Shown here piece after piece: positions 6,489 through 24,131 of a stretch of 53,819 nucleotides of DNA. The translations under genes were made by a program, and so were the position numbers. The DNA comes from an uncultured Bacillota bacterium. Lineage in GTDB: Bacteria; Bacillota_I; Bacilli_A; RF39; UBA660. Each line of letters opens with the position of its first letter. Within the stretch, counting starts at the first letter, position 1. A model generated the notes under the pieces. It was not told the DNA's origin. It ran no database searches and saw nothing but the letters and a program-made list of their open reading frames with translations. The stretch is taken from assembly GCA_947165005.1 (NCBI GenBank), contig CAMUYN010000001.1:67963-121781 (forward strand), in the 5' to 3' direction.

Positions 6489-7418
6489 ATGAGAAAATTA
6501 CTTGTTTTTGTAGTATTTGTAGTTAGTATTCCAGTAATGGTTATTAACTTTTTTTATTCTTATAAAGATTTTGATATGGATACAGGTTTTATTAATAATG
6601 AAAAAGAAAATGATGTATTTATTAGAGTATTAAGAGGAAACGGCAATATTGAGACAATTAATATTGAAGATTATTTAATTGGTGTAGTTCCCTCTGAATC
6701 ACCTTTATCATTTGAGGATGAGGCTTTAAAAGCTCAAACTGTTGCAGCTAGAACTTATGCCCTTAAACAAATGCAGAATAATCAAGGAAATTCTTATGAT
6801 GTTACTGATGATACTTACAGTCAAGTATACTCTGACTTAGATACTTTAAAATATAGATGGGGAGAATATTTTGATCAGAATTATACTAGAATAAAAAACA
6901 TTGTAGATTCAACAAAAGGTCAATATATGTCTTATGATGGTGATATTATATATGCATTCTTTTTTTCTACAAGTAATGGTTTTACTGAAGATAATAAAGA
7001 TGTTTTTGGTGCAGACTTACCATATTTAAAAGTAGTTGATAGTTCTTTTGATGCTGAAGAAACAGATAGGTTTAGTGTGACAACTTCATTTACTAAGGAT
7101 GAATTTTATAACGATTTAGGAATACCATATAGTGATGAATTAATTATAACTGATGTAGTTAGAACAGCATCTAATAGAGTTTCTAATTTATGTATTAATG
7201 GATATTGTTTTAATGGGATATCTTTTCAATATAAATTGGGACTTAGATCTAATGATTATGAGATAATTGATAATGGGAATATAGAAATAACTACAAAAGG
7301 ATTTGGACATGGTGTTGGGCTTAGTCAATATGGAGCAAATGCACTTGCTAAAAGAAATAAGAATTATGAAGAAATATTAAAATATTATTATCAGGGAACA
7401 GAATTAAAAAAATTATAG
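6489..7418 (+). CDS. spoIID: Stage II sporulation protein D (SpoIID lytic transglycosylase family)
   Basis: 309 aa. N-terminal TM; EDYLIGVVPSE...EALKAQTVAARTYAL...FFSTSNG.TE...GHGVGLSQYGAN signature. Confidence 0.9.
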   Translation: MRKLLVFVVFVVSIPVMVINFFYSYKDFDMDTGFINNEKENDVFIRVLRGNGNIETINIEDYLIGVVPSESPLSFEDEALKAQTVAARTYALKQMQNNQGNSYDVTDDTYSQVYSDLDTLKYRWGEYFDQNYTRIKNIVDSTKGQYMSYDGDIIYAFFFSTSNGFTEDNKDVFGADLPYLKVVDSSFDAEETDRFSVTTSFTKDEFYNDLGIPYSDELIITDVVRTASNRVSNLCINGYCFNGISFQYKLGLRSNDYEIIDNGNIEITTKGFGHGVGLSQYGANALAKRNKNYEEILKYYYQGTELKKL

Positions 7419-9313: not shown

Positions 9314-10525
9314 ATGTTTAAAGATTATCACAAATATTTGAAGGCAAGTTTGAAAGTGTATCTTTTTGTATTAATTATTATATTTATACTTAAGATAGTT
9401 GGATTTGATTATTTTGGCATAGATGTAAATAATTCAACACTTATAAATATAGATAAATTTTTAGGAAAATATCATTTAAAAGAAGTATGGTATTTTATCA
9501 CATTGTTCTTACAATTATATTTTTATCTATGTTTAGTTTGTAAAAGAAAAGATTTATATCTATATACATTAATCGGTTCAATTATTAATCTAATTGTTCA
9601 GTATGCTTTAACTTATTTTCTTCAAGCGGATTGGTATTATCAAATATTTAGTATGTTATTAACATTAATATTACCAATGATTATTAATAAGAAGATTTGC
9701 TTTAAGAGACAAATATTATTTATTGTTTTAATTAATGCATATCAATTAATATCTTTATTTATAAGAAATGTTGGCATTAATTCAAATTATAGTAATTTCA
9801 TCGTAGATAGTATATTGAACTTAGATCAGTTGTTATTGCTTGGAATAACATTCAAAATCTATTTTATGAAAGGAGAGATACAATGTTTACAGGAAGTTGG
9901 TTCTTCTTCGCTAAAGAAGATAAGCTTAAAGAAATCGCTTCAAAAATTGCAAAAAAACTTTCAAGATAATTTAGAAGCATTTAAAAGCAAGAGTAAAGAA
10001 GAAAAATTAACCATTATTATTTTTTCTATTCTTAGTTTAATATGGAATTGTTTAACACTTGTAGTAGTATTTATTATTGCAATGATAAATGATTCAGTAA
10101 TTGAGTGTATTTTCATAATTAGTTCTTTTTGGTTATCAAAAAGATTGTTTGGTAAACCATTTCATTTTCATAGTATGATTATATGTTTTATAGTATCAAA
10201 TTTAACTTATTATGTTTTAAATAGAATAACTACACCGCTTGGTATTAGTATATTTATTCCAATATTGTTAGGAGTAGGTTTATCTTATATTACATCTAAA
10301 TTTGTTAAGAAAACATATAAACCTCTACATAGAGGTATGTCTAAAGAATTATTTGAAGAAACAATATTACAAGTTGTTGATAAAGATAGTGAGAAATATA
10401 ATATTTGTTATGATTTTTATATAGAAAAGAAAAGTGATTTAGCATTATCTTATAAATATAATTATTCAGTATCAGGTATTAGGAAAATTAAAGATAGAAT
10501 TAATGATAAAATAAAAAGACTTTAA
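9314..10525 (+). CDS. Polytopic membrane protein with C-terminal cytoplasmic HTH-like (sigma-70 region 4-like) tail
   Basis: 403 aa. Two blocks of TM helices separated by a basic linker. The last ~65 aa (SKELFEETILQVV...SDLALSYKYNYSVSGIRKIKDRINDKIKRL) resemble an HTH. Function unknown. Confidence 0.5.
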   Translation: MFKDYHKYLKASLKVYLFVLIIIFILKIVGFDYFGIDVNNSTLINIDKFLGKYHLKEVWYFITLFLQLYFYLCLVCKRKDLYLYTLIGSIINLIVQYALTYFLQADWYYQIFSMLLTLILPMIINKKICFKRQILFIVLINAYQLISLFIRNVGINSNYSNFIVDSILNLDQLLLLGITFKIYFMKGEIQCLQEVGSSSLKKISLKKSLQKLQKNFQDNLEAFKSKSKEEKLTIIIFSILSLIWNCLTLVVVFIIAMINDSVIECIFIISSFWLSKRLFGKPFHFHSMIICFIVSNLTYYVLNRITTPLGISIFIPILLGVGLSYITSKFVKKTYKPLHRGMSKELFEETILQVVDKDSEKYNICYDFYIEKKSDLALSYKYNYSVSGIRKIKDRINDKIKRL

Positions 10526-10616
10526 AAAGGTCTTTTTTTCTTTATTAGTGTTATTTTGTATTACTTTAAAAATGTATTATTTTCTATGACACTAAAAAAA
10601 GAGAGGATGATTTTTT

Positions 10617-11510
10617 ATGACATTTATTAATATTACTTTATTTATTACCATTATTTTAGAAATACTAATTATTTTTTATTATTTCTTTATTAGTGAGTTA
10701 AAACGTAATATCAAAATATTATTATTAACAAATTTAATTATTATTATAATTTCTATTCTTAGGTATATTGAAAATAATATGTTTGAAAACATTATGGATA
10801 TATATAGTTTTCTTGTTCTTATGACTTCATTATTATCCATTATTATATTGAAACTTGTATATTATATTCATATATTAAGTAATAAGAATAATAAATTATT
10901 AAAATGCATTGTTGAGTATGAAAACACAATTGATGAACAGGGAAAAAGAAATCATGAATATAATAATCAATTATTAGTTTTAAAAGGATATATTAATAAT
11001 AAAGATAGGTTAAAAGATTATTTAAATATAATTATTGATGATCAAAATAAAAACCAGAACTATAGAATAAGACAATTATCAAATTTTCCAAATGGTGGAT
11101 TAAAAGAATTACTTTATTATAAAATATGTGAAATAAAAGATAAGAAGATTAAATATTATTTATATTGTTCCACTGATATAAGTAAATATATGGAAAAGTT
11201 AAGTGTTCGTTTTTATAATAGTATTACAAAAATATTTGGGGTTTTAATAGATAATGCAATTGACGGAGCGTTAGAGGCAAAAGAAAAAGAGGTTATATTA
11301 GATTTTAATAAAGATGATAAATATATAGTTATTACAATTTCTAATACATATAATAATATAAATAAAAAATGCATTTCTTCAAAAGGTAAAGGTCATGGGT
11401 TTGGTTTAAAACTCGTAAAAGAAATAATTAATAAAAATAAAGGTTTAGAATTATTGACTGAATATAATGATAAATATTTTGTGCAAACTTTGTTAATTAA
11501 AATTGAGTGA
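10617..11510 (+). CDS. AgrC-like (HPK10, GHKL) sensor histidine kinase, orphan
   Basis: 297 aa. About 3 N-terminal TM helices; H-box RNHEYNNQL, N-box LIDNAIDGA, G-box GHGFGLKLV. No response regulator adjacent. Confidence 0.7.
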   Translation: MTFINITLFITIILEILIIFYYFFISELKRNIKILLLTNLIIIIISILRYIENNMFENIMDIYSFLVLMTSLLSIIILKLVYYIHILSNKNNKLLKCIVEYENTIDEQGKRNHEYNNQLLVLKGYINNKDRLKDYLNIIIDDQNKNQNYRIRQLSNFPNGGLKELLYYKICEIKDKKIKYYLYCSTDISKYMEKLSVRFYNSITKIFGVLIDNAIDGALEAKEKEVILDFNKDDKYIVITISNTYNNINKKCISSKGKGHGFGLKLVKEIINKNKGLELLTEYNDKYFVQTLLIKIE

Positions 11511-15974: not shown

Positions 15975-18470
15975 ATGAGCATATTTAAAAGATTATTTGA
16001 TTATCAATATAAAGAAATGAAAAAATTTACTGCGTTAGCAGATCAAATAGAATCTAAAAAAGAAGAATATGAAAAATTAAGTGATACAGAACTACAAGAA
16101 AAAACTGAAGAATTTAAGAAGGCATTAGAGAAAGGTAAAACACTAGATGATATATTAGTAGATGCTTATGCTACTGCAAGAGAAGCTGCTAAAAGAGTTA
16201 TTGGAGAATATCCTTTTTACGTACAGTTATTAGGCGCTATAGCCATTCATTATGGAAATATAGCAGAGATGAAAACTGGTGAAGGTAAAACATTAACATC
16301 TGTTATGCCAGCATATTTAAATGCATTAACTGGTAAGGGTGTTCATATTGTTACAGTTAACGAATATCTAGCATCAAGAGATGCTAACTGGATGGGTCAA
16401 ATATTTAAATTCTTAGGTTTAACAGTTGGTATTAATGGAAGAGATTTATCTCCAGAGGAAAAGAAAGAAGCGTATAATTCAGATATTTTATATTCTACTA
16501 ACAATGAAATTGGTTTTGACTACTTAAGAGATAACATGGTAGTTAGAAAAGAAGAAAGAGTACAAAGAGGATTAAACTTTGCTATTGTCGATGAAGTAGA
16601 CTCAGTACTTATTGATGAAGCTAGAACACCACTTATTATTTCTGGTGGATCTATGCATACATCTAATCAATATATAGATGCACAAAGATTTGTAGAAAAA
16701 TTAAAAGAAAATGAAGATTTCAATATAGATGAAAAAACTCAAAGTATTAGTTTAACTGATGAGGGAAGTAAAAAATGCGAATCATTTTATCATATTGATA
16801 ATATGTATGATGTTAAATATTCTGCATTAGTACATCATGTTAATCAAGCATTAAGAGCTAACTTTATAATGCACAATGAAGTAGATTACATTGTACAAAA
16901 CGGTGAAGTAGTAATAGTAGACCAATTTACTGGACGTTTAATGCATGGAAGACAATTTTCTGAAGGACTTCATCAAGCATTAGAAGCAAAAGAAAGAGTT
17001 CAAATTAATGAAGAAACAAAGACTCTTGCTACTATTACATTCCAAAATTTATTTAGAATGTATAATAAACTTGCTGGTATGACTGGTACTGCTAAAACTG
17101 AAGAGGAAGAATTTAGAGATATTTATAACATGTATGTTATAGAAATACCTACTAATAAACCAGTAATAAGAGAAGATATGGCAGATTTAATATATGCTAC
17201 TAAGAAAGATAAATATGCTGCTATTATTAATGAAATTAAAGAGAGACATGCAACAGGACAACCAATACTAGTTGGTACAATTGCAGTTGAAACTTCTGAA
17301 TTAATTAGTAATATGCTTACTAAGGAACATATTAAACACGAAGTATTAAATGCTAAGAACCATGAAAGAGAAGCAGAAATAATAGCAAAAGCCGGAGAAA
17401 AAGGTTCAGTAACAATAGCGACTAACATGGCTGGACGTGGAACAGATATTAAACTAGGGGAAGGTGTTAAAGAACTTGGTGGATTATGTGTTATAGGTAC
17501 TGAAAGACATGAATCAAGACGTATAGATAATCAGTTGAGAGGTCGTTCTGGAAGACAAGGCGATCCAGGATATTCCCAATTCTTTGTATCATTTGAAGAT
17601 GATTTAATGGTTAGATTTGGTACTGATAGATTTAAAGAATTAATGCAATCTGCAGGGCTTGGAACAACTGTTACTTTAAGAAGTAAGACAATGACTAGAA
17701 ATGTTGAATCAGCTCAAAAAAAGGTTGAAGGAAACAACTATGATATAAGAAAAAACTTATTACAATATGATGATGTAATGGGTAAACAAAGAGAAATAAT
17801 GTATGCAAGAAGAAATGAAATTCTTGATAGGGAATCTATTCATGATACTATTATAAAATTAATAAAAGAACATATTGATGAAATAGTAACAGGACATACA
17901 ATATATCAAAAAGATTTAACAGAACAAGACTGTTCAGAAATCTGTGAATATATGAATGAAAATCTATTATCTAAGTCATTTATAAAAGTATCAGAAATAA
18001 TAAATGAACCAGTAGAAAAAGTAATTAAATATATAACAGATGTAGTTATAACTGAATATAATAATAAAATAAGTGAATTACCAGAAGAAATAATTAATGA
18101 TTTCGAAAAAGTAATAGCACTTAGAGTTATAGATACTCACTGGATGGAACATATAAATACTATGGATCATCTAAAAGAAGGAATTGGTCTTAGAAGTTAT
18201 GCTCAAGCGGATCCTTTAGTAGCGTATACTAAAGAAGGATTTGATTTATTTGATCAAATGCTATCGGTTATTAATAAAGAAACAACTATTTATTTATTAA
18301 AAGCAGAAATTAAACAAAACTTAGAAAGAAAGCAAGTTGAAAAGCCAACTGGGGACAATAGTTCTGATAAAACCTCTACTAGAACTCCAAGAAAAGTCAA
18401 AAAAGTTGGTAGAAATGACCCATGTCCATGTGGCTCAGGACGCAAATATAAACAATGTTGTGGTAAATAA
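15975..18470 (+). CDS. secA: Preprotein translocase ATPase SecA with C-terminal SEC-C zinc motif
   Basis: MKTGEGKTL Walker A, DEVDSVLIDEARTPLIISG, TNMAGRGTDI. Ends GRNDPCPCGSGRKYKQCCGK*. RBS ggagcg supports the ATG at 15975. Confidence 0.95.
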   Translation: MSIFKRLFDYQYKEMKKFTALADQIESKKEEYEKLSDTELQEKTEEFKKALEKGKTLDDILVDAYATAREAAKRVIGEYPFYVQLLGAIAIHYGNIAEMKTGEGKTLTSVMPAYLNALTGKGVHIVTVNEYLASRDANWMGQIFKFLGLTVGINGRDLSPEEKKEAYNSDILYSTNNEIGFDYLRDNMVVRKEERVQRGLNFAIVDEVDSVLIDEARTPLIISGGSMHTSNQYIDAQRFVEKLKENEDFNIDEKTQSISLTDEGSKKCESFYHIDNMYDVKYSALVHHVNQALRANFIMHNEVDYIVQNGEVVIVDQFTGRLMHGRQFSEGLHQALEAKERVQINEETKTLATITFQNLFRMYNKLAGMTGTAKTEEEEFRDIYNMYVIEIPTNKPVIREDMADLIYATKKDKYAAIINEIKERHATGQPILVGTIAVETSELISNMLTKEHIKHEVLNAKNHEREAEIIAKAGEKGSVTIATNMAGRGTDIKLGEGVKELGGLCVIGTERHESRRIDNQLRGRSGRQGDPGYSQFFVSFEDDLMVRFGTDRFKELMQSAGLGTTVTLRSKTMTRNVESAQKKVEGNNYDIRKNLLQYDDVMGKQREIMYARRNEILDRESIHDTIIKLIKEHIDEIVTGHTIYQKDLTEQDCSEICEYMNENLLSKSFIKVSEIINEPVEKVIKYITDVVITEYNNKISELPEEIINDFEKVIALRVIDTHWMEHINTMDHLKEGIGLRSYAQADPLVAYTKEGFDLFDQMLSVINKETTIYLLKAEIKQNLERKQVEKPTGDNSSDKTSTRTPRKVKKVGRNDPCPCGSGRKYKQCCGK

Positions 18471-18471
18471 G

Positions 18472-18509
18472 CCCGCAAACCCGCATAAAATAAGGGATTG
18501 CGGGTTTTT
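18472..18509 (+). terminator. secA intrinsic terminator
   Basis: cccgcaa(18472-18478)/ttgcggg(18498-18504), or alternatively aaacccgc/gcgggttt, followed by ttttt. Confidence 0.8.
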
Positions 18510-18553
18510 CTATGATTACAATATTTAGGTAAAAACTGACGTGTTCACTGTCC

Positions 18554-18612
18554 TAGATAAGTTTTAGATAAGTTATCAAAATCTCACAAACCCTTATAAA
18601 ATAAGGCTAAAA
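18554..18612 (+). repeat. Module A, left (truncated) copy: tandem 11-mers plus terminator remnant
   Basis: tagataagtt-t-tagataagtt (18554-18574), then atctcacaaacccttataaaataagg, which matches agctcgcaaacccgcataaaataagg of the full copy at 21971. Confidence 0.8.
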
Positions 18613-18647
18613 CATATGTTGAGACATTAATTTCAAATTAAATACAA

Positions 18648-18668
18648 AACTTATCTAAAAATTATCTA
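18648..18668 (-). repeat. Module A 11-mer pair in inverted orientation
   Basis: aacttatctaaaaattatcta equals the reverse complement of 21801-21822 apart from a 1-nt deletion. Confidence 0.8.
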
Positions 18669-18749
18669 AATTGTAATTTATTACCTAAAAGTAGTAATAT
18701 CAAAATTAATGACAAAGATTTATGGTATAATTTATATAGAAGAAAAGCG

Positions 18750-20657
18750 GTGATATTCTTGGAAAAAAGCATTCTTTTAAAAGATAATAAAGAACTAATG
18801 AAGTATTGGGACTATGAGAAAAATAAAGATTTAAATTTAGATAAGCTAACACTTGGAAGCAGTAAAATTGCATGGTGGAAATGTGATAAAGGCCATTCGT
18901 ATGATGCAAAAATAAAAAGGAAAAATTATGAAAAAATAATATGCCCCATTTGTTCTAATCATAGAGTACTAAAAGGATATAATGATTTAGCGACAACTAA
19001 TCCTGAATTATTAAAGGAATGGGACTTTACCAAAAATACTATTTCGCCATATGAGATAACAGCTGGTGCGGAAAAAATGATATGGTGGATTTGTCCTAAA
19101 GAGCATTCATACCAATCATATGCTTTTAACCGTAAAAGAGGAGTTGGATGTCCAATTTGTGATGGTAAGAAAGTATTAATTGGATATAATGATTTAGCAA
19201 CAACAAATCCTAAAATTGTAAAAGAATGGGACTATGAAAAAAATGGAAATCTTAAACCAACGGACATTACAGAAGGAAGCGCTATAAATGTTTGGTGGAA
19301 ATGTGATAAAGGCCATTCGTATGATGCAAGAGTGAAAGATAGAAAACGAGGATTAAATTGTCCATTCTGTTCAAATAAAAAAGTATTAGTCGGTTTTAAT
19401 GATTTATATACATATTGTATTAATAATCATCTTGAAGAAATAATAGAAGAATTTGATAATGATAAAAACAAATTTTCAATGAAAGACGTTACAGCAGGTA
19501 GTGATAAAGAAACATGGTGGAAATGTCCAAGGGGGCATTCATATCAGTCTAGTCCATCCAGAAGAGTTATGAGAGGATCTGGCTGTGGGATTTGTAGTCA
19601 TAATATTCTACTAAAAGGTGTAAATGATTTACTAACCACACACCCTGAAATAGCAAAAGAATGGGATTATAAAAAGAATAAAGTTGGTCCAGATGAAGTA
19701 ATGGCCGGAAGCAATATAGATAAATACTGGTTTATTTGTCCAAAAGGCCATAGTTACCATACCACTGTCTTAGGTAGAAAAAGAGGAACTAACTGTCCAC
19801 AGTGTAACATAGAAAAGCATACATCAATTCCAGAAAGATCAATTTATTATTACATGAAAAAATATTTTGTTGATGTAGTTGATAGTTATCATAGTAAAAA
19901 AATCGGAAGAAAAGAAATTGATATATTTTTGCCAGCATTTAACTTTGGGATAGAGTATGATGGTAGAGCTTGGCATAAAAATTATAAAAGAGATATAGAA
20001 AAAGATAACCTTTGTTTAAAAAATGATATTACGTTATTTAGAGTAAGGGAAATAGGCTGCTTCGAATATGATAGTAGTTCAATAAAAAAATATATAAATC
20101 CATATGATATAAAAGAATTAAATGAAGCAATTAAATCTATTTTTGATTATATAAATAAAAAATATAAACAAAACATTAGTGTAGATATAGATATTGAAAG
20201 AGATAAAATCAAAATTCTTGAATTAATGAACTTATCCGAAAAAGAAAATTCAATTGCTAAGTATTGTCCAAGTATTAAAAAATATTGGGACTCAACTAAA
20301 AATGGATTGATTACTCCTGAACAAATTTCACACGGAAGTATGAAAAAAGTATTTCTAAAATGTGAAAAAGGCCATGAGTGGGATAAAATTGTAAGTAATA
20401 TTAGAAAAGAAATAAAATGTCCATTTTGTTTTGGAAGAAAAGTACTACCTGGATTTAACGATTTGGCAACTACTCATCCTGAAATATCAAAAGAATGGAA
20501 TTATGAAAAGAATGGAGATCTTAAACCAACAGACATTAAAGCAGGAAGTAATAAAAATGTATGGTGGAAGTGTGAAAGAGGTCATGAATGGCAAGCTGTT
20601 ATAAATATAAGAACTAACGGATATAGAAAATGTTCAATTTGTTCAAAAATAAATTAA
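18750..20657 (+). CDS. Seven-fold zinc-ribbon repeat protein with embedded PD-(D/E)xK (Vsr/DUF559-like) nuclease core
   Basis: Seven modules W(W/F).C..GH.(Y/W)...(8-10 aa)...CP.C preceded by (L)KEWDYEKN. Between modules 5 and 6: EIDIFLPAFNFGIEYDGRAWH...D...LFRVRE. GTG start at 18750 is uncertain. Extended -10 tggtataat at 18723-18731. Confidence 0.7.
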   Translation: MIFLEKSILLKDNKELMKYWDYEKNKDLNLDKLTLGSSKIAWWKCDKGHSYDAKIKRKNYEKIICPICSNHRVLKGYNDLATTNPELLKEWDFTKNTISPYEITAGAEKMIWWICPKEHSYQSYAFNRKRGVGCPICDGKKVLIGYNDLATTNPKIVKEWDYEKNGNLKPTDITEGSAINVWWKCDKGHSYDARVKDRKRGLNCPFCSNKKVLVGFNDLYTYCINNHLEEIIEEFDNDKNKFSMKDVTAGSDKETWWKCPRGHSYQSSPSRRVMRGSGCGICSHNILLKGVNDLLTTHPEIAKEWDYKKNKVGPDEVMAGSNIDKYWFICPKGHSYHTTVLGRKRGTNCPQCNIEKHTSIPERSIYYYMKKYFVDVVDSYHSKKIGRKEIDIFLPAFNFGIEYDGRAWHKNYKRDIEKDNLCLKNDITLFRVREIGCFEYDSSSIKKYINPYDIKELNEAIKSIFDYINKKYKQNISVDIDIERDKIKILELMNLSEKENSIAKYCPSIKKYWDSTKNGLITPEQISHGSMKKVFLKCEKGHEWDKIVSNIRKEIKCPFCFGRKVLPGFNDLATTHPEISKEWNYEKNGDLKPTDIKAGSNKNVWWKCERGHEWQAVINIRTNGYRKCSICSKIN

Positions 20658-20671
20658 AGCGAGGAAAAAAT

Positions 20672-21778
20672 ATGAATCAGAAAAAAATATTGAAAGCAAT
20701 AAAATGGATTCTAATTGTAGGATTAATTATTCTAATATTTTATGAAATGTTTATAAAGAGAATTATAAGTAAATCGATTACTTTTCTTGAGTTGTCTCAT
20801 TATGAAAATAGAAGTGACATATTAGCTTACATTAGTATAATAGTAACATCACTAATTAGTTATAATATTTATAATTTGTCTAAAAGAATTAATCAGCAAA
20901 ATTGCATGGAAAAAAATAGGCACAAATATGAATCTATTTGCGCAGTATATGATTATTTAAATGAAATAATTTTATATACAAAAAAAATTGTTTTTAATGA
21001 TAAAGAAGACTATCATAACTTAGATTATAATAAAGATTTTATGAAGCATGTATATAATATAAGCAATGAAGTGTTAGATGAAAATGATATTGAATTGATT
21101 AGGAAAATTGATCAGACTATTAGAAACTATTTAAACAGAAATAAGAATAGTAATACCGAAAAATTAGTTATAAAATGGGTTTATAAAAATTTGTTTGATA
21201 TGAATATGAAAATTGAAAAAATAGAAGAACTGAACAATATAGTAGATACTGATTTGTTATTAAATCCACAAGTAGTTCTTATATTATCAAAACTTAGAAA
21301 AGAACTTAATTATGATTATAATAAGATAATCAACTATGGTGAAATGATTTTGCAAATAAAAAATAAAAAGGGTCAAGTTATTATTTATAAAAAATATAAT
21401 AATGAATGCTATGTCGATAATGGCATTGGAGTATTAGAAATATATGAGCCGATTTTTTATTCAAATAACAAATTTTATCGAAATGGTGGAATGGTTTATA
21501 AAGGAAATGTAAAAAAATATTTACCACATGGTGATGGAATATATTATTATTACAAATCAGATGAGACAAAAAAGATTTATGTTAATAGTGATGATTTGAT
21601 TGATAAAACAGCGGTAAGAATAAAAAGAATACTTCAAAAAGAGGATATACCTGAAAGAACTAACTTAGTAGTAAAAGGGCAGTTTAAAAACGGAAAAATA
21701 GTAAAGGGATTAATTGAATTTGAGGAAAAAGATTTGGGCAAAATTGAAGTTGCTGAAAACGACTATAAGAAATTGTAA
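20672..21778 (+). CDS. N-terminally membrane-anchored hypothetical protein with possible MORN-like repeats at the C-terminus
   Basis: RBS gaggaa 5-7 nt before the ATG at 20672. TM helix ILKAIKWILIVGLIILIFY. C-terminal YKGNVKKYLPHGDGIYYY and VKGQFKNGKIVKG. Confidence 0.55.
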   Translation: MNQKKILKAIKWILIVGLIILIFYEMFIKRIISKSITFLELSHYENRSDILAYISIIVTSLISYNIYNLSKRINQQNCMEKNRHKYESICAVYDYLNEIILYTKKIVFNDKEDYHNLDYNKDFMKHVYNISNEVLDENDIELIRKIDQTIRNYLNRNKNSNTEKLVIKWVYKNLFDMNMKIEKIEELNNIVDTDLLLNPQVVLILSKLRKELNYDYNKIINYGEMILQIKNKKGQVIIYKKYNNECYVDNGIGVLEIYEPIFYSNNKFYRNGGMVYKGNVKKYLPHGDGIYYYYKSDETKKIYVNSDDLIDKTAVRIKRILQKEDIPERTNLVVKGQFKNGKIVKGLIEFEEKDLGKIEVAENDYKKL

Positions 21779-21830
21779 TTAATTAAAATTTAATTTATTT
21801 TAGATAAGTTTTTAGATAAGTTCTGCTAGG

Positions 21831-21920
21831 TTTGCCGAGTGCTACGGAGTGCTCCCAAGTGCAACCAAGTGCCGAATTAACGAGCCAAGTGCTCCCAAAA
21901 GCTCCCAAAATCCCCAATAC
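21831..21920 (+). repeat. Degenerate decamer tandem repeat (consensus GCTCCCAAGT, about 8 units)
   Basis: gctacggagt gctcccaagt gcaaccaagt gccgaattaa cgagccaagt gctcccaaaa gctcccaaaa tccccaatac. 42 of 80 nt are G+C in an otherwise AT-rich window. Confidence 0.8.
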
Positions 21921-21926
21921 AAAAGG

Positions 21927-21971
21927 CCATGTGGCAGTGGTAAAAAATATAAACAATGTTGTGGTAAATAA
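21927..21971 (+). pseudogene. Start-less copy of the secA SEC-C tail (PCGSGKKYKQCCGK*)
   Basis: ccatgtggcagtggtaaaaaatataaacaatgttgtggtaaataa versus secA 18426-18470. No ATG or credible RBS in frame back to the TAG at 21813. Confidence 0.85.
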
Positions 21972-22019
21972 GCTCGCAAACCCGCATAAAATAAGGGAAG
22001 ACGCGAGCTTTTCTTTTTT
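21971..22019 (+). terminator. Hairpin terminator, paralog of the secA terminator
   Basis: agctcgc(21971-21977)...gcgagct(22003-22009) then ttttctttttt. The loop aaacccgcataaaataaggg is identical to the secA terminator. Confidence 0.75.
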
Positions 22020-22053
22020 GTAAAAATGGTATAAATTGTAAAAATTACAGCAC

Positions 22054-22100
22054 TATCTACACTTTATCTACACTTAACAACTTTTGAAAAATCTGATAAA
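22054..22100 (+). repeat. Module B, left (truncated) copy
   Basis: Perfect tandem tatctacactt x2 (22054-22075). The next ~25 nt (acttttgaaaaatctgataaat) resemble 22727-22750 of the right copy. Confidence 0.7.
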
Positions 22101-22192
22101 TACCTAATAATATAAGGAAAAATCAGCACTTGTTTACTTCGAGAGTGGTATTGGTAAATAATATGATATAATTAATACAGGAGTTGATCCAA

Positions 22193-22696
22193 ATGAATTA
22201 CGTTATTAGAAAAAAAGAACGAAAAGATTGCGCTGATGTTGCACACGTTGTAACGGTTGCTTGGAACGAAACATATAGAGGAATAGTACCTGATGAATTT
22301 TTGGACAACTTATATACTAACGAAGAAGAAAGGGCCAAGAACTCTTTTAGCAATTTTAATGAAAAAGAAAATCATCAATTTGTTTTAGAAGTTGATGATA
22401 AAGTAGTAGGATTTATAAATGTTGGTTCAAGTGATGAAACAGATTATGAAAATTGTGGTGAAATTCATGCGGTATATATTATTAATGGATACAAAGGACA
22501 TGGGTATGGTAAAAAATTAATTGATGCAGGAATTCAAGAATTAAAGTCAATGAATTTTGACAAAATGGTTATTGGTTGTTTGGATGGAAATCCATCAAAT
22601 GAATTTTATAAACATCTTGGTGGAAAGTTTATAAAAACAAGAATTTTTGAAAAATTACAGTTGCCAGAAAATGTTTATTACTTTGAAAAAATATAA
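22193..22696 (+). CDS. GNAT-family N-acetyltransferase
   Basis: Motif A IHAVYIINGYKGHGYGKKLIDAG. RBS caggag supports the ATG at 22193. Extended -10 tgatataat upstream. Confidence 0.85.
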   Translation: MNYVIRKKERKDCADVAHVVTVAWNETYRGIVPDEFLDNLYTNEEERAKNSFSNFNEKENHQFVLEVDDKVVGFINVGSSDETDYENCGEIHAVYIINGYKGHGYGKKLIDAGIQELKSMNFDKMVIGCLDGNPSNEFYKHLGGKFIKTRIFEKLQLPENVYYFEKI

Positions 22697-22699
22697 AAC

Positions 22700-22906
22700 T
22701 ATCTACGCTTTTATCTACGTTTTAGCAGAGTTTTGCAAAATATGATTTAATGTGAATTAACGGAAAACGGCGTGGTTTAAAGGGCTTTAGATGATATCTA
22801 AAATCTCAGAATTACTAAACATCGCATCCATGTGGCAGTGGTAAAAAGTATAAAAATTGTTGTGGAAGAAATAAGACTTGTAAAGCCCTTAAATTAAGGG
22901 CTTTTT
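22700..22906 (+). repeat. Module B, right (full) copy
   Basis: tatctacgctt-t-tatctacgttt, tagcagag, spacer containing gaattaacg (also present in module A), SEC-C tail copy, hairpin aaagccctt/aagggcttt. Confidence 0.8.
22828..22874 (+). pseudogene. Decayed copy of the secA SEC-C tail (PCGSGKKYKNCCG..), stop lost
   Basis: ccatgtggcagtggtaaaaagtataaaaattgttgtggaagaaataag. No start codon upstream in frame. Confidence 0.8.
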
Positions 22907-22931
22907 ATTATAACATTCACAAGACTATTTT

Positions 22932-23050
22932 TTACATACGTTATTACATACGTTGTGAGAACGTATATAAAACGTATGTACATTGCTTTTTGAAATCTAA
23001 AAACCAATATTTTCAGAGGTTACAGAATATATGTACCACTGCCACTGTGG
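22932..23050 (+). repeat. Module C, left (decayed) copy containing a 50-nt palindrome
   Basis: ttacatacgtt-a-ttacatacgtt gtgag aacgtatataa-aacgtatgtac (22932-22981) forms a near-perfect hairpin. taccactgccactgtgg (23034-23050) resembles an inverted SEC-C fragment. Confidence 0.7.
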
Positions 23051-23116
23051 TATGGGTAAGTATTGAAAAAAAATAAGAATAATGATAAAATAATTTAAAT
23101 AAAGGAATGAATAATA

Positions 23117-23650
23117 ATGAATATAATTTGTAAAATAACGGATAATGATATAGGAGAAAATTACATCGAAATTAATAATCCCAAAACAAGATTAGGTGCA
23201 AGAGGAATTGTTATTAGAGATGATGGAAAAATTGCAATATTTAATAAAACTAATAAAAACGAATATAAGCTTCCAGGCGGAGGAATCGAAAATGATGAAA
23301 CACCAGAAGAAGCATTTAAAAGAGAAGTTTTAGAAGAAACCGGTTGCATTGTTGAAATTATAGAAGAATTAGGTATTACCGAGGAGTATAAATGCCAATC
23401 TAATTTTAAACAAATTTCAAATGTGTTTTATGGAAAAGTAATAGAAGATACAAAACAATTACATATTACTCAAAAAGAAAAAGATGAGGGTGCTGAATTA
23501 TTATGGGAAACACCTCAAAAAGCATTGAAATTAATAACTGAATGTTATGATAAATTGGTAAAGTCTGATTATGAATCAGTTTATTCAACTAAATTTGTGG
23601 TTTTAAGAGATAGAATAATATTAGAATACTATATTAATAAATATCAATAA
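23117..23650 (+). CDS. NUDIX hydrolase
   Basis: Nudix box GGGIENDETPEEAFKREVLEETG. Confidence 0.88.
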   Translation: MNIICKITDNDIGENYIEINNPKTRLGARGIVIRDDGKIAIFNKTNKNEYKLPGGGIENDETPEEAFKREVLEETGCIVEIIEELGITEEYKCQSNFKQISNVFYGKVIEDTKQLHITQKEKDEGAELLWETPQKALKLITECYDKLVKSDYESVYSTKFVVLRDRIILEYYINKYQ

Positions 23651-23661
23651 TATATTTAATT

Positions 23662-23863
23662 TCACATACGTTATTACATACGTTCTGCTAGTAGTGCTGA
23701 GTGAATTTGAGTGCTACTAAGTGTAAAAATGTTCGAAATAATGGGATAAAATGCTCGGCAGTGTAGTAGAATATACCCAGAATAAAAGCCATGTAGCAGT
23801 GGCAAGAAATATAAGCAATGTTGTGGAAAATAAGTTAGCAGAACGTATAAAACAAGATAAAAT
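23662..23863 (+). repeat. Module C, right (full) copy
   Basis: tcacatacgtt-a-ttacatacgtt, ctgctag, AGTG-periodic tract, SEC-C tail copy. A 13-bp perfect inverted repeat atacgttctgcta(23678-23690)/tagcagaacgtat(23836-23848) encloses it. Confidence 0.8.
23789..23833 (+). pseudogene. Most diverged copy of the secA SEC-C tail (PCSSGKKYKQCCGK*)
   Basis: ccatgtagcagtggcaagaaatataagcaatgttgtggaaaataa. In-frame TAA two codons upstream. Confidence 0.8.
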
Positions 23864-23886
23864 AAATGCTTTAAATGAATTTTAAA

Positions 23887-23918
23887 GGAACAAATATAGA
23901 AAATTTGTTCCTTTTTTT
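23887..23918 (+). terminator. Intrinsic terminator closing the islet
   Basis: ggaacaaat(23887-23895)/atttgttcc(23903-23911) followed by ttttttt. Confidence 0.7.
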
Positions 23919-24104
23919 GCATAATTAAGAAGTGATTGTATTAAAACAAAAGGAGAGTATAACATGAAAATAATAGTTGGTGTGATATAGAAGAAGTCTT
24001 CAATGATATGGATGATAAATTAAGACATTTAAATTTTATAAAACAACCTATAAAATATATTAAAGAAAATAAAATAGGTACATTAGATATAATCAATACC
24101 ATAT

Positions 24105-24131
24105 AAAAAAACTCACTTAAGTGAGTTTTTT
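24105..24131. terminator. Bidirectional hairpin terminator (A-run/actcac-ttaa-gtgagt/T-run)
   Basis: aaaaaactcacttaagtgagtttttt. Overlaps the stop of the minus-strand CaCA gene. Confidence 0.7.

Follow-up and report, generated by a model that had tools for sequence, protein, structure and literature searches.

Serial integration of non-autonomous cassettes as the probable origin of a secA tail-repeat array in an uncultured Bacillota bacterium

The core of attP in lambda and Tn916 is flanked by arm-type sites that are bound by the N-terminal domain of the integrase, and IMEX elements, which are Xer-dependent, occur in tandem arrays without an integrase of their own. CIMEs contain no integration or transfer genes, keep both attL and attR and have been described as decay products of ICEs and IMEs; tandem accretion of ICEs and IMEs at gene 3' ends is known for ICESt1/3 at fda in Streptococcus thermophilus and for the tRNA-Lys islands of S. 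agalactiae (PMC5704250). In staphylococci, SCC-like cassettes are found in tandem with SCCmec at the rlmH 3' end; some of them are recombinase-less and are excised in trans by the recombinase of a neighbour, and their cargo includes anti-phage defence (PMC11470126). Other systems to be compared are the Prochlorococcus tycheposons and tRNA-flanked islands (bioRxiv 10.1101/2020.12.28.424599) and the ssrA islands of Dehalococcoides (PMC3146451). The SEC-C codons of secA were not found as an integration target in the literature searched.

We examined a window of 53,819 nt (the whole stretch of DNA that was analysed) in which the last 45 nt of the essential gene secA (18426–18470) have further copies at 21927, 22828 and 23789, all on the + strand. 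The features of the array are the following.

15975–18470, + strand: secA coding sequence; last 12 codons and stop (18426–18470) supplied by element 1
18426–21926, + strand: element 1, 3501 bp, integrase-less; a member of the TTAGATAAGTT ("class A") family of scaffolds
18427–18433, + strand: CATGTGG, the core (crossover region) within the SEC-C codons for Pro-Cys-Gly; further + strand copies at 21928–21934 and 22829–22835, and one decayed to CATGTAG at 23790–23796
18469–18508, + strand: terminator hairpin (-20.5 kcal/mol, z = -4.4), then a U-run
18553–18574, + strand: left (P'-side) pair of tandem 11-mers, CTAGATAAGTT TTAGATAAGTT, at a distance of 127 nt from the core; putative arm-type integrase sites
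18648–18669, - strand: inverted copies of the left 11-mer pair, 95% complementary
18723–18731, + strand: putative extended -10 promoter TGGTATAAT, read from sequence, part of the scaffold and pointing toward the cargo
18750–20657, + strand: cargo gene; its 635-aa product contains seven DUF4379 treble-clef zinc-finger repeats
20672–21778, + strand: cargo gene for a 368-aa protein with a hydrophobic N-terminal segment
21800–21822, + strand: right (P-side) tandem 11-mer pair TTAGATAAGTT T TTAGATAAGTT, 127 nt ahead of the next core
21823–21926, + strand: right arm of element 1, CTGCTAG then AGTGCT-rich repeats with a period of ~10 nt
21927–22827, + strand: element 2, a 901-bp integrase-less cassette with tail (21927–21971), hairpin, 11-mers CTATCTACACT TTATCTACACT (22053–22074), GNAT gene and 11-mer pair (22699–22721)
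22193–22696, + strand: GNAT acetyltransferase, cargo of element 2 (Pfam Acetyltransf_1, E = 2e-16)
22828–23788, + strand: element 3, a 961-bp integrase-less cassette with decayed tail (22828–22872), terminator (22882–22904), 11-mers TTACATACGTT A TTACATACGTT (22932–22954), NUDIX gene, 11-mer pair (23662–23684) and a CTGCTAG/AGTGCT right arm
23117–23650, + strand: NUDIX hydrolase, cargo of element 3 (Pfam NUDIX, E = 2.5e-15)
23789–23914, + strand: most distal and most decayed tail (PCSSGKKYKQCCGK, then stop), with a decayed hairpin and a terminator at 23884–23914

The repeats of the tail are real and chance is excluded: a search allowing 3 mismatches found 2 copies versus 0 expected in 100 shuffles, and a scan allowing 8 mismatches found exactly four sites in the 53.8 kb and no copy on the minus strand. 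The 38-nt core of the tail is 82–100% identical among copies (repeat families D6/D7 and alignment), and downstream of each of the four tails come a stable hairpin and then a U-run (folding energies -20.5, -15.5, -12.3 and -12.2 kcal/mol, with z-scores from -2.9 to -5.0). An earlier note on this DNA had described the secA 3' end and its hairpin as recurring three times downstream in the same orientation, which the searches, shuffles and alignment confirm; the off-frame ORF peptides that it took as an echo of the repeats are indeed shared, as a by-product of the DNA repeat. The secA product itself contains the Pfam domains SecA_DEAD, SecA_PP_bind, P-loop_SecA, SecA_SW and SEC-C. For the most distal tail (64% identity over 72 nt, repeat family D6) there are two readings: an older secA end that was displaced, or the left end that remains of a deleted fourth element.

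The same note placed the insertion exactly at the secA stop codon and considered each cassette to be closed by a tail copy. Both points need correction: the junction lies 37–43 nt upstream of the stop, in CATGTGG, and each cassette starts with the tail that it brought, so that the most distal tail is the oldest. Among 41 class A elements, only C(A/T)TGTGG is common to left and right junctions, the attL and attR of prophages have CATGTGGCAGTGGTAA in common, and within one element attL and attR are identical over just 7–16 nt, in a constant position. A 2106-bp element shows the polarity with which tails are replaced: its tail is identical from ATGTGGC on with either secA or the end of another element as left neighbour, and its hairpin, too, stays the same regardless of that neighbour. 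Element 1 matches the L055 element with 98.7% identity over 2277 nt from 18426 and with 96% over its final 192 nt, even though identity between the SecA C-termini of the window and L055 is only 57% and secA is diverged upstream. The secA tail at 18426–18470 came with element 1, and its hairpin, conserved in the class A left-end alignment, is now the secA terminator.

Element 1 has conserved left and right ends that are common to 40 other loci, and a 24-nt signature from its right arm matched 36 metagenome loci and 4 genome loci. Class A comprises at least 24 complete integrase-less elements with at least 14 different cargo sets and common end scaffolds of about 320 nt and 135 nt, including a conserved outward promoter (its columns are conserved in 14 distinct left ends) and the inverted 11-mer copies. 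The 635-aa cargo protein matched Pfam DUF4379 (E = 4e-114, 7 stretches), with a central region without known fold, and had no PADLOC match; it had been called a Zn-ribbon nuclease, of which the nuclease part was not confirmed (a sub-threshold REase_MTES_1575 match, E = 0.08). The 368-aa protein had no family match, and its slot is occupied by other genes in L055 and L106. Copies of the 2106-bp element reach 98.3–100% identity in hosts that have 36% identity over the C-terminal 300 aa of SecA, and identical elements occupy different array positions in such distant hosts, which shows recent horizontal spread. Regarding the smaller cassettes, Pfam agreed with the GNAT and NUDIX cargo named in the earlier note. 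The left end of element 2 is 84–92% identical to ends in L084, L089 and L025, and a homologue of its GNAT is found within a different scaffold in L010; the right arm of element 3 is 70–80% identical to class A right arms, and a promoter-like site with TG lies upstream of the NUDIX gene (23063–23091).

The tandem 11-mer pairs flanking the cores had no place in the earlier anatomy. Each cassette in the window has a tandem 11-mer pair of its own flanking the core on either side, at a distance of about 127 nt (104 nt in one case). In a comparison of the ends of 76 cassettes, a k-mer of at least 12 nt was common to both ends in 49% of cases versus 6.5% in mismatched controls, and the matched k-mers were located at -111 to -160 from the core; left and right 11-mer subtypes agree in 20 out of 21 class A elements. 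This layout is that of the arm-type sites in a lambda/Tn916-type attP, and we infer that the 11-mers may be bound by the N-terminal Arm-DNA-binding domain of an integrase. The AAG, ACG and ACC arm variants of cassettes each have a prophage counterpart, and integrases with the same arm are 89–92% identical versus 59% or less for those with different arms, a link between integrase lineage and 11-mer type that is drawn from five integrases. Another integrase family has GTCCACA arms, yet its members are just 37–39% identical to each other, and arm recognition is therefore treated as putative.

As stated before from the sequence, there is no integrase in the window (tblastn, and Pfam for 27 of 40 ORFs with a length of 150 aa or more). 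The recombinase that the note proposed to look for was found in related genomes and prophages: tyrosine integrases (Phage_integrase and Arm-DNA-bind_4, with a catalytic domain of the R..HxxR..H..Y type) are encoded in full length ~260 nt past the secA tail in L002, L005, L027, L056, L058 and L074. Prophages at the same site have, at attL, a tail, a hairpin, a TTAGATA-type 11-mer pair and the integrase, and in one complete prophage (about 39 kb) this 11-mer pair recurs at attR, together with a AGTGCTCCC arm. Element 1 has its arm 11-mers in common with these integrase-bearing prophages, and in one prophage attL the left ones lie at equal distance from the stop. The missing integrase is thus explained in principle, since the cassettes are non-autonomous and the 11-mers of element 1 match prophages that have one. 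In the search for helpers, the arm types of element 2 and element 3 gave chance matches only. No circular form or free phage attP was recovered, and tandem cassettes yield the same junction as a circle.

Among 80 genome loci of related uncultured gut Bacilli, 25 had tail arrays, with 2–5 tails each, always on the + strand and mostly between secA and prfB; no tails were found scattered or inverted. Occupancy of the site is variable: it is empty in L054 (secA, 94 nt, prfB), L021 has a single cassette followed by prfB, other secA-prfB loci have gaps of 1.5–7.1 kb, and L009 corresponds to L008 with a 4.2-kb insertion. None of the three observations that the earlier note had named against its reading (modules scattered over many loci, invariant content downstream of secA, non-significant tail similarity) was made, and its proposal of serial site-specific integration at the secA 3' end, each element with a replacement tail, is upheld by the relatives.

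We consider it probable that the secA SEC-C tail acts as attB and that the array represents serial integrations of non-autonomous cassettes moved in trans by phage-type integrases. In particular, tyrosine integrases in this clade of uncultured gut Bacilli with low GC would use the Pro-Cys-Gly codons of SEC-C as chromosomal attB, and the attP of each element would consist of a right arm, the core C(A/T)TGTGG, replacement codons for the final 12 of secA together with stop and terminator, and a left arm. Because attP carries these replacement codons, stop and terminator, secA would stay intact on integration and the previous tail would be displaced downstream. Repeated integration would have left three elements and then the oldest tail in the window, each element contributing one or two genes along with a tail, terminator and promoter of its own. 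All three are non-autonomous, keeping the complete attL/attR architecture without encoding a recombinase, and element 1 is a member of a widespread scaffold family with interchangeable cargo. Temperate phages that reside in the same cell or infect it may supply, in trans, the integrases for excision and integration, and the cassettes may travel from cell to cell linked to such phages or islands.

It is also conceivable, though unlikely, that the cassettes are inert decay products, i.e. internally deleted prophages or islands (classical CIMEs) that are immobile and spread vertically or as passengers. Decay does happen at the site, given the integrase remnants in 11 of 42 cassettes of other arm types, and some cassettes could be deletion remnants; the window lacks an integrase, and displaced tails do decay (the stop of the element 3 tail, at 22866–22872, was lost through a 2-nt insertion, and the distal tail has Gly to Ser at 23795). 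However, none of 23 complete TTAGATA-arm cassettes had a remnant of an integrase or phage gene, near-identical elements sit at various array positions in distant hosts, and independent deletions are disfavoured because they would not produce the uniform class A boundaries and promoter around so many cargo sets. Mobilisation by a host-encoded recombinase, as for the Xer-dependent IMEX, would agree with the absence of recombinases from cassettes and window and with the tandem IMEX arrays, but we regard it as highly unlikely: CATGTGG and its surroundings read unlike a dif site, the element-specific 11-mers match prophages that encode their own integrases, and a single host enzyme would leave the diversification of arm sequences unexplained.

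Copying of the secA 3' end by homologous recombination or slippage, or a REP/MITE-like lookalike repeat, has very little probability in our view. The 38–45 nt of tail similarity could support occasional homologous exchange, mosaic tails (GGCAGTGGTCGC vs GGCTCAGGACGC) suggest some conversion between tails, and the simple core model does not explain the secA duplicate (about 180 nt) that comes after one cassette type; against this, the attL/attR identity is short and fixed in position, tails are confined to co-oriented arrays downstream of secA, and the same junctions are seen around integrases and complete prophages. An integron-like array, which the earlier note took as also fitting, would mean that an IntI-type integrase had captured promoterless attC cassettes at an attI beside secA; this reading draws on the short co-oriented cassettes with one or two genes and no recombinases and on GNAT and NUDIX being common integron cargo. 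It is scarcely credible, as no IntI was found in the window or beside any of about 120 related arrays, the repeat unit is a direct copy of coding sequence and terminator rather than an imperfect attC palindrome, each cassette has its own promoter, and the integrases found are of the arm-binding phage type.

The proposed serial integration of trans-mobilised cassettes shares with integron cassettes the small co-oriented arrays, the varied accessory cargo and an integrase encoded elsewhere; unlike integrons, the arrays lack IntI, attI and attC, a terminator is present in each cassette, and a duplex core with flanking arm repeats takes the place of the folded single-stranded attC. The short core with direct and inverted ~11-bp repeats on both sides at about 100–160 nt is lambda/Tn916-like, as is the Arm-DNA-bind_4 domain of the integrases at the secA site (arm binding being putative here), but here the part of attP carried by the element doubles as a functional gene end with its terminator. 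As in tycheposons and ssrA islands, successive same-site integrations by tyrosine recombinases push older elements inward and leave partial target-gene copies between cargo modules; those systems use tRNA or tmRNA targets and are defined elements with their own integrase and often replication genes, whereas here a protein-coding tail requires in-frame replacement and the cassettes are minimal and integrase-less. Tandem cassettes at the 3' end of a housekeeping gene, bounded by repeats of the gene end, are also found in SCC, which differs in its large serine recombinases (Ccr) and short sites without arms from the tyrosine integrases with an arm-binding domain and lambda-type attP arms seen here; mobilisation in trans is experimental for SCC and inferred for the secA cassettes. 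Finally, the absence of integration and transfer genes, the retained attL/attR and the integrase-bearing relatives at the same site are CIME-like, although the uniform att scaffold that includes a promoter and is combined with at least 14 cargo sets and no gene remnants, the copies 98–100% identical across distant hosts and the matching integrases on temperate phages set these cassettes apart. The secA cassettes are most likely a variant of CIME accretion and of recombinase-less SCC-like cassettes.

We found that the last 45 nt of secA (18426-18470, encoding PCGSGRKYKQCCGK*), here called the tail, recur downstream at 21927, 22828 and 23789, all on the + strand, with 82-100% identity over a 38-nt core of the copies. 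The repeat, first noticed from the sequence alone, is real and significant: a search at 3 mismatches recovered 2 tail copies against 0 expected (100 shuffles), and a scan of the 53.8 kb at 8 mismatches returned exactly the four tail sites, with zero on the minus strand. All four tails lead into a stable hairpin and a U-run (-20.5, -15.5, -12.3 and -12.2 kcal/mol). In the displaced tail at 22828 a 2-nt insertion has abolished the stop, the tail at 23789 carries a Gly to Ser change, and several displaced tails of relatives are frameshifted, a decay that is expected once selection on them is lifted. Peptides shared by off-frame ORFs, which had been read as an echo of the repeats, are by-products of the DNA repeat. 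The tails delimit three elements, and tandem 11-mer pairs, a feature absent from the earlier note, bracket each of them at set distances from the core C(A/T)TGTGG, which lies in the SEC-C Pro-Cys-Gly codons.

Elements and 11-mer repeats 3' of secA in the window
18426-21926, + strand: element 1
21927-22827, + strand: element 2
22828-23788, + strand: element 3
18553-18574 (left pair), 18648-18669 (inverted copies) and 21800-21822 (right pair): 11-mer TTAGATAAGTT of element 1, +127/-127 nt from the core
22053-22074 (left pair) and 22699-22721 (right pair): 11-mer (C/T)TATCTAC(A/G) of element 2, +126/-129 nt from the core
22932-22954 (left pair) and 23662-23684 (right pair): 11-mer TTACATACGTT of element 3, +104/-127 nt from the core

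The 11-mers are cassette-specific, the exact 11-mer of element 1 having no other occurrence in the window, and cores and arm repeats are kept at both ends of all three elements. Between the tails lie four cargo genes, encoding a 635-aa protein with seven DUF4379 zinc-finger repeats, a 368-aa protein without a family match, a GNAT acetyltransferase and a NUDIX hydrolase. Family assignment upheld the last two identities; the label of nuclease formerly given to the DUF4379 protein was not confirmed, with only a sub-threshold match to REase_MTES_1575 (E = 0.08) and no solved-structure match. We detected no integrase in the window, as had been stated, either by tblastn with five integrases or by Pfam on 27 of the 40 ORFs of at least 150 aa. 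In the islet of cassettes, neither an Rfam family nor a tRNA reached the scanning threshold, and an exact-protein look-up of the window SecA returned no record.

Some further features of the window were also recorded. In element 3, 12 nt of the tail core recur in inverted orientation (GTGGCAGTGGTA; 23034-23052, - strand) as part of a small hairpin, some 206 nt away from the core; this may be a secondary core-type site or a chance match. The stretch that separates the last tail from the convergent Na/Ca-exchanger gene (23920-24125) holds an RBS with ATG, an 8-codon ORF (23965-23991) and a bidirectional terminator, possibly what is left of a fourth cassette that was deleted. Elsewhere (1179-1910, 6489-7418 and 9314-11510), the window encodes a YabG-type peptidase, a SpoIID-domain protein, and an AgrB-like protein adjoining a GHKL histidine kinase; such sporulation-associated and Agr-like genes are notable for a small-genome, Mollicutes-like gut lineage.

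A SecA scan with one genome per species yielded 80 related loci (L-numbers below), all from uncultured low-GC gut or rumen MAGs labelled Bacilli, Mollicutes or Erysipelotrichaceae (e.g. Clostridium sp. CAG:433 and Candidatus Aphodocola), the best SecA match having 92% identity. In 25 of the 80, 2-5 tail copies were found 3' of secA, co-oriented every time, and the number of cassettes ranged from 0 to 5. The gene prfB forms the conserved right flank of the array in relatives and is not in the window; the genes downstream of the window array (Na/Ca exchanger, PHP protein), considered as a conserved flank, adjoin the array in no relative. We identified an empty site at L054 (secA, 94 nt, prfB with its CTTTGAC frameshift site) and a singly occupied one at L021 (a 2.5-kb cassette, the tail, 68 nt, prfB), while the secA-prfB gap at other loci spans 1.5-7.1 kb and L009 has the L008 arrangement with a further 4.2 kb inserted at the tail. 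Thus, the comparison of secA-downstream regions revealed both empty and differently filled sites, and their content is hypervariable among relatives rather than invariant. Many MAG contigs stop within about 100 nt of the secA stop (L004, L006, L007, L034, L046, L061 and others), which fits assembly breaks at a repeated, strain-variable locus. One cassette type (L008:13044-13232, L009:17267-17444, L011:14167-14345) has a 139-aa gene and, after it, a second copy of the ~180 nt that end secA, compared with the usual 45, which may reflect another crossover point or imprecise capture.

The source of each tail was read from near-identical elements in different hosts. The window and L055, whose SecA C-termini share only 57% identity, match from CCATGTGGCTCAGGACGC onwards at 98.7% over 2277 nt, a stretch comprising the tail, hairpin, 11-mers and DUF4379 gene. 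Likewise, a 2106-bp element present in six loci has the same tail from ATGTGGC on, its left neighbour being secA in L081, L091 and L097 and another element's right end in L051 and L114, and the sequence beyond its right end in L051 is unlike that of the other loci. Left and right junctions have only C(A/T)TGTGG in common. Since the left neighbour is irrelevant to the tail and only the core is common, each element supplies the proximal tail, and the displaced older tail goes distal; the copy at 23789 is the oldest tail of the window array. Integration takes place at a fixed short core in the SEC-C codons, the element replacing the gene end and its terminator, and elements accrete serially between secA and prfB. 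The junctions and the empty and occupied sites bear out in outline the proposal of the earlier note, namely serial site-specific integration with replacement tails, and none of the three outcomes that the note named as refuting it was observed. At L102, another ORF of an array contains a SEC-C-like motif (CPCGSNKKYKKCC; 1353-1397 in the orientation used here), and other SEC-C proteins could be secondary attachment sites.

Integrases were found in the elements of relatives. Full-length tyrosine integrases (Phage_integrase, Phage_int_SAM_3, Arm-DNA-bind_4) start about 260 nt past the secA tail in L002, L005, L027, L056, L058 and L074, a further one lies inside the L078 array, and fragments occur in L009, L010, L018, L032, L051 and L057. 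Two tyrosine-integrase families adjoin the tail in relatives. Arm-DNA-bind_4 was assigned by Pfam to the integrases of L074, L078, L002 (both) and L084, while the scan of the L117 integrase gave no match to that domain and its N-terminus aligns with the L084 integrase. Integrase-bearing elements share the same end layout with other 11-mers (e.g. TTTGTCCACA, TTTGTGCACA and TTTGTTTGCAA). In the first integrase family, represented by only 8 full-length sequences, GTCCACA arms occur with integrases 37-39% identical. The second element 3' of secA in L002 (16181-19544) encodes a DnaD/HTH_36 protein, an excisionase-type HTH_17 protein, a tyrosine integrase and a Mob_Pre relaxase, and is an integrative mobilizable element.

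We searched for further members of the scaffold family of element 1 (class A) with its 24-nt right-arm signature, which matched 4 further genome loci and 36 metagenome loci and had no exact match in IMG/VR. The 24 complete class A elements measure 0.9-3.8 kb and carry at least 14 cargo sets of 1-2 genes each, all on the + strand and never with an integrase; cargo includes a queuosine-salvage protein, a GH10 hydrolase, an S51 peptidase, MetRS, TyrRS and a class II aminoacyl-tRNA synthetase. Around this cargo, a left end of about 320 nt is conserved (tail, hairpin, direct 11-mer pair, CCTTATAAAATAAGG palindrome, inverted 11-mers and extended -10 promoter TGGTATAAT), as is a right end of about 135 nt (11-mer pair, CTGCTAG, AGTGCTCCC-type repeats and core). 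The two ends are matched: the 11-mer subtype (AAG or ACG) is the same left and right in 20 of 21 class A elements, and among 76 complete cassettes of all kinds 49% share a k-mer of at least 12 nt between their ends, located at -111 to -160 from the core, against 6.5% of mismatched controls. Copies of the 2106-bp member from hosts with 36% identity in the SecA C-terminal 300 aa agree with one another at 98.3-100%, so these integrase-less cassettes have spread horizontally in recent times; a single cassette can land in such divergent hosts because the SEC-C motif is conserved in protein sequence. The palindrome CCTTATAAA(A)TAAGG, located between direct and inverted 11-mers (18591-18606 in the window), recurs in most left ends of otherwise different element classes, and may be an accessory-factor binding site.

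The end architecture and 11-mers of these cassettes are common to integrase-bearing prophages. The 9.2-kb element of L084 is bounded by TTAGAACCATT pairs and has a 374-aa integrase (minus strand) by its left end, with homologues at 53-58% identity on IMG/VR contigs. Two such contigs were informative in their gene order.

Order of features on two IMG/VR contigs
IMGVR_UViG_3300022753_002054: secA, one integrase-less cassette, tail and hairpin, TTAGATAAGTT twice, integrase, phage genes
IMGVR_UViG_3300028833_003330, attL (left element end): secA tail, hairpin, TTAGATACCTT twice, integrase
IMGVR_UViG_3300028833_003330, attR (right element end): TTAGATACCTT twice, AGTGCTCCC-type arm, core, displaced tail

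In the first contig, the distance from the 11-mer pair to the stop is that of window element 1, and its phage genes comprise CI-like and Cro-like regulators, Erf, exonuclease, SSB, NinB and replisome organizer (PHROGs), followed by putative HNH endonuclease, terminase, portal and protease ORFs read from size, order and sequence; the second is a complete prophage of ~39 kb. Each of the AAG, ACG and ACC arm variants of the integrase-less cassettes has a prophage counterpart. Integrases (n=5) were 89-92% identical when the arm was the same and at most 59% when it differed. Tandem TTAGATAAGTT occurred in IMG/VR in two prophage contigs and four unrelated chance matches, and a search there for a helper for element 3 arms (TTACATACGTT) or element 2 arms (TATCTACRYT) gave chance matches only, with neither tails nor integrases. 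Finally, integrase remnants were present in none of the 23 complete cassettes of the TTAGATA arm type (that of element 1), compared with 11 of 42 other cassettes.

Taken together, these results suggest a mechanism in which the 11-mers would be arm-type sites for the N-terminal domain of the integrase, phage-type integrases would excise and integrate the cassettes in trans, and the cassettes would travel between cells linked to such phages or islands. The near identity of copies from distantly related hosts speaks indirectly for mobilisation by a helper. We hold the overall explanation, from serial integration at the SEC-C core to this mechanism, to be probable; the trans-mobilisation step taken alone stands at an even chance or somewhat below it. 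More tentatively, and leaning somewhat against it, we put forward that TTAGATA-arm elements may be dedicated minimal "attP-plus-promoter-plus-cargo" cassettes that live as parasites on the integrases, and perhaps also on the particles, of those temperate phages that target the secA SEC-C codons, a lambda-type counterpart of integron cassettes that would move single accessory genes between distant gut Bacilli. If so, the near-invariant SEC-C motif would offer such cassettes the same target site across hosts. Among the cargo already known are aminoacyl-tRNA synthetase paralogues, queuosine salvage, glycoside hydrolase, GNAT, NUDIX and zinc-finger proteins.

These findings place an integration hotspot of a large uncultured gut-bacterial group in the codons for the zinc-binding SEC-C motif of an essential gene. 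In the human-gut MAG UMGS532, an island at the secA tail (L074:12709-21289) encodes, in order, an integrase, an HTH protein, PAP2, a glyoxalase, PadR, a 640-aa EF-G-like ribosomal protection protein (tet(M) type), a streptomycin adenylyltransferase (ant(6) type) and an IS110 transposase; the site therefore already hosts clinically relevant antibiotic-resistance cargo in a human-gut genome. Related arrays (L003:12782-14652; L016:14099-18060; L009:13593-16416; L078:12645-13946) carry defence-type cargo, namely AbiLi/AbiLii, a type III restriction-modification pair, a type IIG/I methyltransferase with specificity subunit, and a PD-T4-6-like kinase. Full-length aminoacyl-tRNA synthetase paralogues were found in L084 (11012-12646, in our orientation), L086 (2213-3400), L101 (557-1861) and L098 (4443-6799); they include MetRS, TyrRS, a class II enzyme and, from sequence, AsnRS adjoining AsnA, and may confer resistance to natural synthetase inhibitors. 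The integrase-less scaffold would amount to a compact natural integration-and-expression vector (replacement gene end, terminator, arm sites, promoter and cargo slot), and could become a genetic tool for organisms that now have none. If moved in trans by phage integrases, it would also constitute a new gene-flow route between phages and hosts.

Several known types of repeat or element were weighed against this interpretation. A dispersed REP/MITE-like repeat was rejected, as the window has only four co-oriented copies and the ~120 related loci only co-oriented arrays; the modules lie 3' of secA or of other cassettes rather than scattered at unrelated loci. Homologous duplication was rejected too. 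The integron-like array, offered earlier as an alternative, resembles the window array in function and differs from it in each defining feature: the window has no IntI or attI and the relatives have phage-type arm-binding integrases, the boundaries are direct secA-tail copies with a terminator instead of attC, and promoters lie inside the cassettes. SCC or pseudo-SCC elements target rlmH/orfX and use Ccr recombinases, whereas here the target is secA and the recombinases found are tyrosine integrases. With regard to IMEX, the core CATGTGG lies in a coding motif and, judged by eye, is unlike dif.

The array is best placed with site-specific integration at gene 3' ends, given its four co-oriented tails and a proximal tail that travels with the element, and within the tyrosine-integrase attB class, the cognate integrases being found in the elements of relatives and not in the window. 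Repeats on either side of the core, matched between the arms of one element, recall attP of the lambda/Tn916 type. An open-literature search of limited scope brought up no account of secA serving as an attachment site, which does not by itself prove novelty. Among known systems, CIMEs and the tandem accretion seen at the 3' ends of genes (PMC5704250) come closest, followed by recombinase-less SCC-like cassettes excised by Ccr recombinases beside SCCmec (PMC11470126); tycheposons and ssrA islands, whose modules are separated by partial copies of the target gene, are also close (10.1101/2020.12.28.424599; PMC3146451). Like CIMEs, the window elements are without a recombinase (in 18426-23918 or the whole window) and keep attL and attR features. 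As to an origin by decay of an ICE or IME, the observations point both ways: the uniform scaffold and the lack of gene remnants in the 23 cassettes of the TTAGATA arm type argue against simple decay, and the end architecture is homologous to that of prophage ends. What sets the secA cassettes apart from the CIME, SCC and tycheposon systems is a target that is a protein-coding zinc-finger tail and undergoes in-frame replacement, a uniform, promoter-bearing att scaffold whose cargo is interchangeable, and integrases of phage type as the presumed helpers.
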